Source: Eledone cirrhosa
Taxonomy: Eukaryota
Reading direction: 5' to 3'
Assembly (NCBI GenBank): GCA_964016885.1
Contig: CAXHJY010000443.1
Span: forward strand, 1 to 64,000
DNA length: 64,000 nucleotides
The notes beneath the pieces are model-generated. The model saw only the letters and a program-made list of their open reading frames with translations, did no database searches and had not been told where the DNA came from. The translations under genes and the position numbers were made by a program. This document shows, one piece after another, positions 1-58,094 of this stretch (its first letter is position 1; each line of letters starts with the position of its first letter).

Positions 1-1287
1 TATATATATATATACACACATATATATATATACACACATATATATATATATATATACATATATACATATACATACATATATATATATACATATATATATA
101 TACATATATATATACACACACATATATATATATATATACATATATACATATACATACATATATATATATATATACATACATATATATACATATACATATA
201 TATATATACATGTATATATATACATATATATATATACATATATATATACATATATATATATATATACATATATATACATACATATATATATATACATATA
301 TATATATACATATATATATATACATATATATATATATACATATATATATATATACATATATATATATATATATATATATATATATATATACATTTATATA
401 TACACATATATATATATACATATATATATACATATATATATACATATATATATATATACATATATATATATATACATATATATATTTACATATATATATA
501 TACATATATATATATATATACATATATATATATATACATATATATATACATATATATATATATATATATATATACATATATATATACATATATATATATA
601 TACATATATATATACATATATATATATATATATATATATATATATATACATATATATATATATATACATATATATATATACATATATATATATACATATA
701 TATATATACATATATATATACACATATATATATATATATATACATATATATATATATATATATATATATACATATATATATATATATATATATATATACA
801 TATATATATATATATATATATATACATATATATATATACATATATACATATATATATACACATATATATATATATATATACATATATATATATATATATA
901 TATATACATATATAGATATATATATATATATACATATATATATATACATATATATATATACATATATATATACACATATATATATATATATACATATATA
1001 TATACACACACACATATATATATATATATATATATATACACACACATATATATATATATATATATATATATATATATATATATATATATATATATATATA
1101 TATACACATATATATATATATACATTGTTATACTTTGGGAGGGTCATGTTGCCAATAAGAAACACACGCACCAGTTGCTTTCACTTCAATTTATTATATA
1201 TTTATAAATTTATAAATTTACAAATCTACAAACTTATAAATTTCTGGTTGGTTGGTTGGTTCCACAACCAGATAGTTGTTTATATAT

Positions 1288-1332
1288 AGTCATAGTCCTT
1301 TCGTCACACACTCTGTGACCTCTTCAGTGACT
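1288..1332 (-). ncRNA. Minimal type I hammerhead ribozyme (family A pLTR)
   Basis: Minus strand reads AGTCA-CTGAAGA-GGTCACAGAGTGTGTGAC-GAAA-GGAC-TA-TGACT. Stem I is AGTCA/TGACT and stem II is GTCAC/GTGAC. Confidence 0.82.
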
Positions 1333-1588
1333 GGGGATTCCTTGCTTTGTTTCTGTGCCTTTCCTTTCTTCTGTCCTACGCCATTTTGTTTCTGTGTGTG
1401 TGTTGTGTGCTCAGTTTGCGCATGCGCCACATCCGGGTGTCTGTGTGTGTTTGTGTTCATTTATCTATTTGTTTATTTATTTATTTATTTATTGTTGGTT
1501 GGTTGTTTGTTCTATGTGTGTGTGTGTTTTCATTTTGTCCTTAATTGTAAGTTGTGATGTTGCTGTTCCGCTCATATTTTCTATTTAA

Positions 1589-2372
1589 TTATGGTTGTAA
1601 TTCTTTTATGCTTACTGCCTCTGTAATCTGCCTAAACATTGCATCTTTTCTGTGTGTGGATTCTATTTTTATTTCTATGTTCTCTAATTTACCCCTGTGT
1701 TCTATCTTAGCATGTTGGTAGAGCACAGATGATTCTTTATTATCTTGAAGGTCTCGCCAGTGTTCATTTATTCGTTCCCCTATACTACGAGCTGTCTCAC
1801 CTATGTACACTATATTTTTGTTTCTACATTGTCCTTCAGTACATCTTATGCTATACACTACATTTCTAGTTTTACAGTTAATATGGGTCTTATTTTACAG
1901 GTTATACATTTCTTATCTATACATGAGGGTCTTTGGAATGGGTATGTCTTGCTAATAAATGTTTTTACGGAGGTACCTGGTCTTTCTACTATCTTAATAT
2001 TGAGTTTATGTTTATTTAGGGCCCTTCTAAATTTGTAGGCTAGTTCGCCTCTAGGGGTTGTATTGATGAACATTACACTCTGGTATTTATTGCTATCATA
2101 CCATGAGTTTATTCTATTGGCCTTGTTCCTAGTTCTTTCTATTCTATTCCAAAATTTGCTCCTATACAAGGGGCAGGTCCCATTTATGTCATTATTTACC
2201 ATTTTTTCCCATTTGGTTCTGGCTCCTCTATACACTCTGATTCTATCTCTCTGATTGTAGCCAGAGAACTGCATACGGTGGATGAAGTGTTGTATGTGTC
2301 TCTCTAGTTCTTCGGGGTTGCACATGCGGGACACATTTCTCATCACCCGTACCAAATCCGCAATCAGTATGT
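1589..2372 (-). pseudogene. PLE RT C-terminus plus GIY-YIG endonuclease fragment, frameshifted
   Basis: INILIADLVRVMRNVS...CIDKKCITCK, then VYSIRCTEGQC...VYIGETARSIGERINEH, with a frameshift near 1885. Confidence 0.88.
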
Positions 2373-53321: not shown

Positions 53322-54545
53322 CTCTTTTTATATACATATATATATATATATACATATATATATATATACATATGCATATATACATATATATATATACATA
53401 TATATATACATATATATATATACATATATATATATATACATACATATATACATACATACATATATATATATATATACATATATACATATATATATATATA
53501 TATACATATATATATATATATATATACATATACATATATATATATATATATATATATATACATATATATATATATATATATATACATATATATATATACA
53601 TATATATATATACATATATATATATACATATATATATATACATATATATATACATACATATATATATATACATACATATATATATATACATACATATATA
53701 TATATATACATACATATATATATATATACATACATATATATATATACATACATATATATATATATATATATATATATATATATATATGTATATACATATA
53801 TATATATATATATACATATATATATGTATATATACATATATATATGTATATACATATATATATATATACATATATATATATATATATATATACATACATA
53901 TATATATATACATATATATATATATATACATATATATATATATATACATATATATATATATATACATATATATATATATACATATATATATATATATACA
54001 TATATATATATATACATATATATATATATATACATATATATATATATATACATATATATATATATATACATATATATATATATACATATATATATATATA
54101 TACATATATATATACATATATATATATATACATATATATATATATACATATATATATATATACATATATATATATATATATATACATATATATATATATA
54201 TACATATATATATATATACATATATATATATATATATACATATATATATGTATATACATATATATATATACATATATATATATATATATATACATATATA
54301 TATATATATATACATATATATACATATATACATATATATATATACATATATATATACATATATATACATATATACATATATATATATATATATATACATA
54401 TATGTATATACATATATATATATATATACATATATACATATATACATATATACATATATATATATATATACATATATATATATACATATATACATATATA
54501 CATATATACATATATACATATATATACACATATATATATATATAT

Positions 54546-56902
54546 TTGGAAAGTATGGCGGGATGGGGGAAGTAGAGAGGACTATCAAGTGGCCAGGAGG
54601 GAAGCTAGGAGACAAGTGTACTTAGCAAGAAGGGAAGCTGAGGAAAGAAAGTTCAAGCATGTTCTACAACGCGATGACCAAAAACGTGAGGTGTTCAGGA
54701 TTGCTAGGCAATGCGTCAAGGAAAACCGTGATATTGTCGGGGAGAAGTGTGTACTAAACGACGATGGCACACTTGCCATCACCGACTCTGATAAGAAGGT
54801 AGCTTGGAAGTGTCACTATGAAAGGCTACTAAATGAGGAGAATAATTGGGAGAAAGGCAGTCTCCCCCATATCGACCCAATAGAGGGACCAGCAGTGTTA
54901 GTCGAGGGGAGTATAATAAGTAAGGCAATCAAGGATATGAAGACGGGTAAGGCGGCTGGGCCTTCGGAAATAGTTGCTGAGATGCTGAAGGCATCTGGCA
55001 CGGTGGGACACACCATGGTCACCCGCATAGTTAACCAAGTCGTACAGAATGGGGTTGTTCCGAAGGACTGGCATAGCAGCATCATCGTTAACTGTTATAA
55101 GGGTAAAGGAGACGCCCTAGATAGGAGTAACTATAGAGGCATTAAATTAATCGACCAGGTCATGAAGGTCACGGAAAAAGTAATAGCCCAACTAATCAGA
55201 GAGAGAATTGACCTAGATGAAATGCAGTTCGGGTTTGTGTCAGGCAAAAGTACCACAGACGCTCTTTTCATAGTACGACAACTACAGGAGAAGTACCTAG
55301 CTAAAGGTAAACCCCTCTACTTAGCTTTTGTCGACTTGGAGAAAGCCTTCGACAGAGTCCCCCGCTCCATTATCTGGTGGGCTCTTAGAAAACTAGGCGT
55401 TGACGAATGGCTTGTGAGGGCTATACAAGCCATGTATAAAGAAACAGTCAGCAAGGTTAGAATTAACAACGAATATAGTGAAGAGTTTAGCGTAAAAGTT
55501 GGCGTCCATCAGGGCTCTGTTCTCAGCCCACTACTATTTATTATTGCCCTTCAGGCTATAACAGAGGAGTTCAAGACAGGCTGCCCATGGGAACTCCTAT
55601 ACGCAGACGACCTGACACTCATAGCGGAATCAATGGCCGAGCTAGAGAAGAAATTCCAAACATGGAAGCACGGCCTAGAGTCAAAAGGACTTAAAATTAA
55701 CCTGGCTAAGACCAAAGTACTAGTTTGTAGGAAAGAAAACAAGGCGGCGGTCCCTTCTGGGAAATGGTCGTGCTCGGTGTGTAGGAAAGGCGTAGGTAGA
55801 AACTCCATTTTATGTCCTAAATGCAAAGTATGGGTGCATAAAAGATGTAGTGGGATCACAGGTAAGCTAACTAAGAACATAGATTTTACATGTGGCCGGT
55901 GCTCTGGTGCAATAAGTAGCAGCAAGTGCCCACAAACTACTAGCTCTTTCAATTGCGCAGAGGGTTCTATAGAAATAGTGGACAGCTTCCGTTACCTGGG
56001 CGATAAAATCAGCAGTGGGGGAGGGTGCTCTGAAAGTACTGTAGCTAGAGTCAGAACTGGTTGGAAAAAGTTCAGAGAGCTTATACCACTATTAGCTGCT
56101 AAAGGGTTCTCACTAAAAATGAAAGGCAGGTTGTACGATGCCTGCATACGAACAGCAATGCTGCATGGCAGTGAGACCTGGGCATTGTGTGCAGAGGATA
56201 TACGCAGACTAGAGAGGAACGAAGCTTGCATGCTCCGCTGGATGTGTAACAGTAATATACGTGAACGGCAAAGCATAAACGAACTAAGGAAAAAATTAGA
56301 GATAAGAGGGATCAGATGTTGTTTACTCGAGAGAAGGCTACGTTGGTATGGACACGTGATGCGCATGAAAGTCGATAGCTGTATAACAAAGTGCAGGGCA
56401 ATAAAGATAGACGGTAGTCACGGAATAGGCAGACCTAGAAAAACCTGGGACGAGCTGATAAACTCCGACATCACACACTTACACCTCTCCAAGACAATGT
56501 CACTGGACCGAGACCTTTGGCGGTACTCAGTAACAGAGAAGACCCGCCTTACCTAAATATATAGTAAAACCTACTCCAGCCAGTAGGCATCTCTAACAAA
56601 ATACACCCCGTCCCACCACCCCCACCCGATCCACACCACCCCGTTCTATGTAAAGTTATGTTGGTGCCGCGCCATCAAGGCCGAAACAAATGAGATCGTG
56701 TAGGTGTCACGACAAAAAAAACACACAGTCCACGCTGTAATGTGGCCATGTAGGCAACACGGTAAAAACCTCCCAGACCCACACTGTAAATGTGGTTGGT
56801 GTTAGGAAGGGCATCCAACTGTAGAAAACCTGCCAGACAGTCCTATGCGAGCAAGACAATCACTCTTGCCTCAAGTGGGACTACCCCCGTCCAAACCCAT
56901 GC
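54546..56902 (+). mobile_element. 5'-truncated RTE-clade LINE
   Basis: Open RT ORF followed by a 3'UTR shared with the copies at 30802, 42417 and 62868. Confidence 0.93.
54547..56556 (+). CDS. RTE LINE reverse transcriptase (5'-truncated, uninterrupted frame) with PHD-like Cys finger
   Basis: [70 protein letters not shown]. Confidence 0.9.
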
Positions 56903-58094
56903 ATATATATATATATATATATATATACATATATATATATATATATATATATGTATATATACATATATATATATATATATATATATATATACATATATAT
57001 ATATATATATATATATATATATACATATATATATATATATACATATATATATATATATACATATATATATATATATATATACATATATATATATACACAT
57101 ATATATATATATATACATATATATATATATATATACACACATATATATATACACATATATATATGTATATACACATATATATATATATATACACACACAT
57201 ATATATATATATATATATACATATATATATATATATACACACATATATATATATACATATATATATATATACACATATACATGTATATATATACATATAT
57301 ATATATATGTATATATATATATACATACATATATATATATATGTATATATATATATACATACATATATATATATGTATATATATATATATATACATACAT
57401 ATATATATATATATACACATACATATATATATATACATATATACACATATATATATATATACATATATACATACATATATATATACATATATACACATAT
57501 ATATATATATACATATACACATATATATATATATACATATACACATATATATATATATATACATATACACATATATATATATATACATATACACATATAT
57601 ATATATATATACATATACACATATATATATATATATACATATACATATATATATATATACATATATACATATACATATATATATATATACATATATATAT
57701 ACATATATATACATATACACATATATACATATACACATATACACATATATATATATATATATATACATATACATATATACATATACATATATATATATAT
57801 ACATATACATATATATACACATATATATATATATATATATATATAGTCTGTGTGTATGTCTGTCCGTGTGTGTGTTTAGAAATGTAAGGGAAACACAAAC
57901 ATAAGACAATTCCCCGCTTCAGTTGTTTGCAGTGGGCCTCCGATGTTTCGACGCATTAAAGACAATACATGTATCCACAGTGCATTAATAACTTCAGGTA
58001 GTTATTAGAGAAGGAAAAGACAAAAAAAAAAGAGACGTTGACGCAGAGAAAGAAAATAAACAGAAAATATACCGATAGAGAGGGTTTTTTTTAT

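Follow-up and report, generated by a model that had tools for sequence, protein, structure and literature searches.

Hydra-clade Penelope-like elements and ORF-less hammerhead retrozymes with a common bulged hairpin in a TA-rich compartment of the Eledone cirrhosa genome

What fills almost 58 kb of TA repeat with hammerhead ribozymes (HHRs), and which enzymes could have placed them there? The question is raised by the first 64 kb (hereafter the window) of a 186.6-kb contig (CAXHJY010000443.1; G000:C470) in the 3.0-Gb assembly of Eledone cirrhosa (GCA_964016885.1), where inserts interrupt one long run of degenerate (TA)n. An earlier interpretation of the letters alone (the sequence-only reading) counted about 20 TA-bounded inserts and proposed a special, self-reinforcing locus in which Penelope-like elements (PLEs) target TA arrays and mobilise non-coding ribozyme RNAs. 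We count 21 inserts and consider it likely that TA-ending PLEs, comprising five families of the Hydra clade and one lineage with a finger insertion, fill a TA-rich compartment together with retrozymes that lack an open reading frame (ORF), and that these retrozymes are copied in trans by the reverse transcriptase (RT) and endonuclease (EN) of Hydra elements through the same twin bulged hairpin, which is predicted to set where copying begins. PLE or hammerhead sequence makes up 15 of the inserts; the six others are three pieces of RTE long interspersed nuclear elements (LINEs), one palindrome containing a short interspersed nuclear element (SINE) and two dispersed repeats.

1 to 57845, unstranded: degenerate (TA)n arrays, merged, 38% of bases, with 21 inserts in between

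The hammerheads themselves are well separated from chance. A type-I descriptor allowing stem II up to 200 nt (a 60-nt limit misses the long-stem motifs) recovered 18 motifs in 1-57845, all scoring at least 13.8 and falling into 10 sequence families (A-J), slightly more than the roughly 16 motifs and nine families first noticed and far above 100 dinucleotide shuffles of 36 kb of non-TA sequence (mean 0.02, maximum 1 at threshold 13). Stem II measures 18-116 nt. Stem III is perfectly or nearly palindromic in 14 of 18 motifs and mostly too short for closure in the monomer (self-duplex energies -1.7 to -11.3 kcal/mol), and these hammerheads may cleave as dimers; the monomer minimum-free-energy structure contains a complete or almost complete stem I in 7 of the 11 motifs folded. 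Rfam returned zero matches in the window at gathering scores, and the 150 matches listed of the 642 in a permissive scan (E ≤ 1) were all to miRNA models, located on TA/TG repeats.

In each family the 3' ends favour two positions, the first lying 35-80 nt past the cleavage site (~290 nt in family J) and the second ~85-150 nt beyond the first (about 55 nt in family A), and the arms of two-armed insertions usually differ by the tail between these two ends. In copies that read through, a bulged hairpin starts 6-11 nt past each end, with a 5' arm N(C/U)UCY, a loop of 4-106 nt and a 3' arm R-YH-GA(G/A)N. In the discovery set, on which the motif was also defined, 19 of 20 junctions have the hairpin (shuffle mean 0.36); the 20 are what remains of 23 after removal of A1 and X13, which lack the hairpin, and of a duplicate family B row. 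With the 3' arm chosen blind to pairing, three positions formed Watson-Crick pairs above permutation, in 17/20 (P = 1e-4), 13/20 (P = 0.005) and 18/20 (P = 0.014; permutation), in families that are related and whose events are not independent. Paired bases of the hairpin covary in surroundings that cannot be aligned, and the structure is common to Hydra families B, D, E and I and to ORF-less families C, F, G, H and J. Beyond the window, in a systematic sample of 60 evenly spaced 10-kb pieces (600 kb), the hairpin lay behind 8 of 18 hammerheads with a stem II of at least 20 nt (expected 0.18) and behind none of 12 with a shorter one. By eye, it is also present in the published coral and sea-cucumber consensi Hydra-2_Amil (GCTCT..ATTGAGC), Hydra-2_Ajap and Hydra-1_Ajap (twice, before the ORF). 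Junctions show a weak TA microhomology, with a mean of 3.05 nt of alternating TA shared with the target versus 1.54 nt locally.

The autonomous partners in this arrangement would be families B, D, E, I and M, which are, as assigned by their motifs, Hydra-clade PLEs (Hydra-1_Obim was compared by eye). Their copies in the window, with pseudo-long terminal repeats (pLTRs), are as follows.

5891 to 9585, unstranded: family B, Hydra, two-armed; 5'-truncated ORF with a frameshift at 6499-8024 (forward); HHR cores at 6087 (reverse) and 9478 (forward)
16493 to 19082, unstranded: family B subfamily, two-armed; HHR cores at 16591 (reverse) and 18896 (forward); bulged hairpin in the tail at 19002-19021 (forward)
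23375 to 25502, unstranded: family D, two-armed, pLTR/3' untranslated region only; HHR cores at 23568 (reverse) and 25407 (forward); hairpin at 23439-23463 (reverse)
25727 to 27276, forward: older 3' end related to family E (77%), a TG/TA mosaic; long-stem-II HHR core at 27074
36792 to 38586, reverse: family I, Hydra; pLTR with HHR core at 38052; twin hairpins at 37853-37893 and 37761-37778
within 36792 to 38586, reverse: family I ORF, N-terminal half (RWK, DKT), truncated by TA
38756 to 40710, reverse: family M, Hydra, 3' half; RT end and GIY-YIG at 38944-40416; degenerate HHR core at 38815; unrelated repeat on the 5' side
45776 to 53335, forward: family E, Hydra, full 7.0-kb unit between direct pLTRs; ORF at 46594-48973 with frameshifts
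within family E, forward: HHR cores at 46157 and 53177; twin hairpins at 46360-46440 and 46498-46615
49400 to 52490, forward: TA/TG microsatellite mosaic in the family E 3' region, ~3 kb, with 11 (TA)8+ tracts, copied with the element

Hydra elements are defined by RWK, DKT, CxCx5C, CxxC and CxH around E/N, the lack of CCHH, together with a GIY-YIG at the C-terminus (PMC8557442); the clade has canonical hammerheads, inserts into (TA)n and includes Hydra-1_Obim from Octopus bimaculoides (Craig et al. 2021, PMC8557442). The families here have these motifs, C-terminal GIY-YIG, canonical hammerheads and (TA)n insertion in common with published Hydra, the core of family M being degenerate. GIY-YIG follows the RT in the ORFs of B, D, E and M (family I is without its 3' half in the window), and the EN translations of the same four families hold the CxCx5C linker, CxxC and CxH and no CCHH. 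Equivalents of RWK and DKT read RVRWR/SDKT in E, RVRWK/ADKT in I and RLRWT/SDKT in D, while B and M are 5'-truncated here. Pfam did not recognise the Hydra RTs and matched the GIY-YIG of family E weakly; family D is 33-38% identical to its relatives and 25% identical to a canonical PLE of the E. cirrhosa genome. Three families had been labelled Naiad-like, a label that is not supported: Naiads carry their EN at the N-terminus and are devoid of canonical hammerheads, whereas neither an N-terminal GIY-YIG nor a lack of canonical hammerheads was found here. Instead, the C-terminal EN (in A, B, D, E and M), the canonical hammerheads and the Hydra motifs move the three to Hydra.

The octopod families also depart from published Hydra. 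At 7 kb, of which ~3 kb are TA/TG microsatellite, family E is longer than the published elements, generally <3 kb; stem II extends to 92-116 nt, tails span ~85-150 nt versus 30-40 nt, and the twin hairpin found here is not described for Hydra in the accessible text of PMC8557442. In the family I copy, both start sites are read through into the ORF; its 3' end, shortly before RT4 and in TA, is atypical.

The sequence-only reading also counted at least five families without an ORF. Family D does not belong among them, since it is the end of an autonomous Hydra family, with PLE coding matches at 11 of 30 loci elsewhere and an intact 821-aa ORF at one (L348:5540-8002); families C, F, G, H and J do lack an ORF.

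3656 to 3931, reverse: family C, short ORF-less HHR element; core at 3759
27959 to 28955, unstranded: family F, 457-bp retrozyme, two-armed; HHR cores at 28216 (reverse) and 28804 (forward); hairpin at 28485-28515 (reverse)
29870 to 30527, forward: family G, 3' end; HHR core at 30426; ORF-less unit of ~2.7-2.85 kb
31310 to 31763, forward: family H, ~483-bp retrozyme monomer; HHR core at 31615
41023 to 41540, forward: family J, 664-bp retrozyme, partial monomer; HHR core at 41184

Tandem units of F (457 bp), H (~483 bp) and J (664 bp) are ORF-less and form arrays that end in TA; one TA-bounded array of ~18.6 kb holds ~41 near-identical family F units (L349-L350, G000:C2:144715664-144734267). 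Contigs from four runs, aligned to family F, had no pile-ups of starts or ends, a signal that contigs would not preserve. No frame exceeds 112 aa in the ~2.8-kb unit of family G, and the ORF-less status of family C, for which no tandem copies were seen, rests on a coding survey of loci elsewhere together with L342-L344. Families F, H and J appear to fit non-LTR (long terminal repeat) retrozymes, and C and G are less clear. For metazoan non-LTR retrozymes, PLEs have been proposed as mobilisers (Cervera and de la Pena 2020, PMC7229834; bioRxiv 10.64898/2026.07.22.740005). The published elements and the families here are alike in their ORF-less tandem units (457-664 bp here) and type-I HHRs; unlike retrozymes as presented in those sources, the arrays here have (TA)n at PLE-type double ends and a cis hairpin in common with a named PLE clade.

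How closely these ends are tied to TA was measured at the 30 best loci for each of eight families (240 in total, the window's own copies included). Flanks of families B, I, K and M were read separately, from incidental loci. Of 130 copies ending where the query ends, 122 adjoined TA and 8 another flank, compared with a null of 2.5% for TA within 10 nt; the other 110 of 240 loci run on into family sequence (tail, ORF or next unit). The systematic sample gives a similar picture: it held 53 hammerheads versus 0-2 in five shuffles, with TA within 230 nt downstream of 50 of them (null 17%) and upstream of 24, and hammerhead density correlates with TA content (Spearman 0.59). The TA preference of the PLE and hammerhead families holds across the genome. 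TA targeting by Hydra elements is already published, and the element classes are known. Extrapolation to the whole genome yields ~265,000 hammerheads of all families (bootstrap 170,000-370,000), more than the 120,000 retrozyme copies given for the axolotl; in the main text of an Octopus vulgaris repeat annotation (PMC13282606), the word ribozyme is absent. RTE LINE ends also adjoin TA, at 16 of 30 loci, so RTE was dropped as a neutral control and TA is a sink common to several elements.

A mechanism can be proposed from two observations: elements terminate next to (TA)n at two fixed positions beyond the hammerhead, as a rule a different one in each arm when the insertion is back-to-back, and a bulged hairpin with covarying pairs lies 6-11 nt beyond each site in read-through copies. 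GIY-YIG would nick (TA)n, and the RT would bind the hairpin and start just 5' of it, aided by ~3 nt of TA microhomology. With both starts located 3' of the cleavage site, a copy that includes the hammerhead would need an uncleaved multimer or a ligated circle, and rolling copying of such a circle could produce the long tandem arrays. Because the ORF-less retrozymes keep the same twin bulged hairpin, they are likely copied in trans by the Hydra RT/EN; the hairpin would then act both as an RT positioning signal and as the handle through which ORF-less elements use Hydra enzymes. The suggestion in the sequence-only reading that PLE machinery mobilises ORF-less hammerhead RNAs gains support from the shared two-ended footprint and the common hairpin. 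A broader version, which we favour only slightly over its negation, holds that a twin hairpin conserved among the Hydra elements of coral, sea-cucumber and octopod sets both RT starts, that unrelated retrozymes parasitise Hydra enzymes by keeping it, which would explain about a quarter-million ribozymes ending in (TA)n, and that one Hydra family seeds new (TA)n targets as cargo. Two questions left by the cited literature are the identity of the enzyme that moves animal retrozymes and the manner in which Penelope-like RTs, relatives of telomerase, choose internal start sites; a short covarying hairpin common to a named autonomous clade and to ORF-less elements makes both testable, and an intact 821-aa ORF exists.

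Parts of this scheme have precedents. For an Anolis PLE, in vitro work has shown two internal sites at which the RT starts and which delimit the tail (Frangieh et al. 2024, PMC11167929); this Poseidon element, PAc, resembles the families here in having both sites 3' of the HHR and an AT-rich target. PAc belongs to another clade and starts in an AC-rich stem-loop, whereas the start proposed here lies 5' of a conserved hairpin with ~3 nt of TA overlap. An inverted pLTR, a tail and pLTR-driven integration in trans have also been described (PMC3846280).

Several observations weigh against the hairpin-guided, trans-copying interpretation. The flank counts cover the best-scoring, mostly young copies. 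In the systematic sample, the hairpin pattern was missing at 10 of 18 long-stem-II hammerheads, and three of the eight positives came from families also present in the window; among published Hydra consensi, the exact hairpin is found in three of six, the other three being variant or ending too early. Stem I is missing from the monomer minimum-free-energy structure in 4 of 11 motifs. The Anolis RT start site is not target-homologous, and hammerhead cleavage was unneeded there (PMC11167929). Finally, family A is without the hairpin at its one testable end, yet it is TA-targeted and two-ended, so the hairpin is not needed for this footprint in every PLE.

Could the same pattern arise without enzymes seeking TA or without trans-copying? 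Wide insertion followed by survival only in TA-rich, gene-poor DNA, or growth of TA at the ends after insertion, would accord with the RTE LINE ends, with the many flanking TA runs that are short and with the lack of recovered empty sites (no empty or allelic site of the window locus was found, and joining the outer flanks of 56 two-armed insertions gave no usable empty site in ~2 Mb). We consider this explanation improbable, given that near-identical young copies adjoin TA at base-pair precision and that a (TA)n preference is published for Hydra (PMC8557442). Similarly small is the chance that the ORF-less families are satellite DNA that arose from the ends of PLEs and was dispersed through segmental duplication or unequal crossover, with the hairpin as inherited baggage. 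Tandem arrays of near-identical units would be expected of such satellites, the hairpin could be common by descent, and a birth model of this kind is discussed by Li, Clavereau and Pollet (2026; bioRxiv 10.64898/2026.07.22.740005). However, dispersed copies occur on many chromosomes, with ends at fixed sites in different TA flanks and with inverted second arms, some copies combine start-site ends with flanks that are unique on either side, and the hairpin pairs covary amid unalignable sequence.

A somewhat greater but still low probability attaches to the idea that insertions create or lengthen TA targets, making this locus special and ever more attractive. The window's 18 hammerheads amount to 3.5 times the genome mean of 8.8 per 100 kb (P = 7e-6), and the summed TA flank of two-armed insertions has a median of 85 bp versus 39 bp for other arrays. 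Family E contributes its 11 (TA)8+ tracts in a mosaic with which all 11 distant loci are collinear (88-96%), and a piece of its 3' region has 2220 first-look candidates in the genome. Because the mosaic is copied with the element, family E would create (TA)n targets; it is observed to move its own tracts, and their use as new targets is proposed. On the other hand, no nested insertion >120 bp was present in 54 locus-strand rows of the family E 3' region (young, overlapping copies), TA runs flanking HHR ends do not exceed the others in length (median 34 versus 39 bp), the per-array hit rate is flat at 8-15% across size classes, and hammerheads per kb of TA number 0.81 in the window versus 1.58 in the sample. 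The density also matches that of other TA-rich DNA: the five samples with >20% TA held 13 hammerheads, or 26 per 100 kb versus 31 in the window (Poisson P = 0.25), and three of 60 samples hold as much TA as the window. The long TA arrays here are likely expansions by slippage or unequal exchange, and per base they are not better targets. What survives of the self-reinforcing claim is that family E carries TA tracts; the feedback is unproven, with no nested insertion seen and long arrays drawing fewer hits per base. The notion of a special system did not hold up, as the density equals that of TA-rich samples and a non-PLE element, RTE, also lands in TA. The anatomy of the inserts is real, and the locus is ordinary, one of many TA-rich compartments filled with TA-ending elements.

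The sixth PLE lineage, family A, differs from the Hydra families in its RT and linker motifs.

1123 to 2942, unstranded: family A, two-armed, 3' part of the ORF; minimal HHR cores at 1327 (reverse) and 2681 (forward); right arm with a ~57-nt tail
33281 to 36613, reverse: family A ORF with two in-frame stops; RT3-RT4 spacing 131 aa
31809 to 33048, forward: inverted family A RT fragment, tail-to-tail with the family A ORF in the insert 31809 to 36613

To judge from its translation, family A is part of a widespread C-terminal EN+ PLE lineage that is marked by a conserved insertion of ~70 aa in the fingers and matches none of the named clades used for comparison. A C-terminal GIY-YIG, CCHH, a CX4CxxC linker (CIDKKCITC), a minimal type-I HHR and TA insertion are common to family A and Neptune/Nematis (PMC8557442 Figs S1, S2, S7), the linker and CCHH being shared with Nematis; family A is unlike both in the ~70-aa RT3-RT4 insertion and in its DKSG, RKDHK and GxxIG motifs, while its EN linker spacer of 7 aa (6-9 aa) is Nematis-like, versus ~25 aa in Neptune references. 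RT3-RT4 spacing is 131 aa versus ~60 aa in Neptune references and 59 aa in a canonical PLE of the same genome. The former Neptune-like label thus falls on spacer and RT3-RT4 spacing: CX2-5CxxC and CCHH fit, and Neptune's lack of a finger insertion does not. Neptune is paraphyletic, so family A may still be a Neptune side branch. The lineage numbers 165 homologues, octopus and sea cucumber among them, and is also represented at L343:6108-8423 (reverse); spacing is 120-139 aa in 90 of 91 scorable homologues (120 fetched), and a relative is 68% identical to an Octopus vulgaris protein. Pfam barely recognises family A, and a family A profile gave weak RT matches only in a sequence search of the PDB. 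Literature searches, with Repbase and Arkhipova 2006 outside their coverage, turned up no description of this lineage or of the bulged hairpin in the texts they reached.

The insertion sits between RT3 and RT4 at the position of the telomerase insertion in fingers domain (IFD). In a fold search with a structure model of a related copy (predicted local distance difference test score, pLDDT, 91.9), telomerases ranked first (Z 15.5, root-mean-square deviation 4.7, 291 aligned); PLE RTs are telomerase relatives anyway, so this match is no proof that the insertion is the TERT IFD. A telomerase-sized finger insertion in a PLE nonetheless bears on PLE-telomerase evolution. The copy at 31809-36613 has no pLTR or hammerhead between its arms and is perhaps a palindrome with a central deletion. 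At 58087-58358 (reverse) lies an older family-A-related pLTR with a weak hammerhead core at 58325 and 3402 first-look candidates in the genome.

A further repeat, family K, stands apart from the 18 type-I motifs.

15332 to 15939, forward: family K, TA-bounded, ORF-less; SGC-order hammerhead candidate at 15820-15930, core at 15869; truncated copy with core at 15349

Its conserved blocks, non-circularly permuted, run in the order S-G-C, as defined by Eckert et al. (2023, PMC10085705); both stem I and stem III are present, and stem I covaries in four forms (seven distinct sequences in ~2 Mb fetched). Copies were found in the window and at L081, L090, L096, L218, L276 and L308, two of them in the 600-kb systematic sample. 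The candidate and the type-SGC hammerheads of PMC10085705 agree in block order and in both stems; the latter come from metatranscriptomes, whereas family K is a genomic animal repeat.

The inserts of other kinds are the following.

11757 to 13087, unstranded: fold-back insert without HHR, TA-bounded; arms perfect over 362 bp; a very abundant SINE-like repeat of ~180 bp inserted
20467 to 21080 and 21170 to 21385, unstranded: two dispersed repeats in TA, without HHR
30800 to 30996, forward: RTE LINE 3' end with a (GAT)n tail, in TA
42419 to 42968 and 54485 to 56902: other RTE LINE pieces (RVT_1)

The RTE LINE ORF contains a PHD-like finger. A search for tRNA genes found none, and the next 60 kb of the contig hold more TA-rich blocks and just three hammerheads. 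At 58385-58738 (forward), past the TA arrays, glycosyl hydrolase family 20 is weakly matched (E 6e-4, under the cut-off), possibly a hexosaminidase exon.

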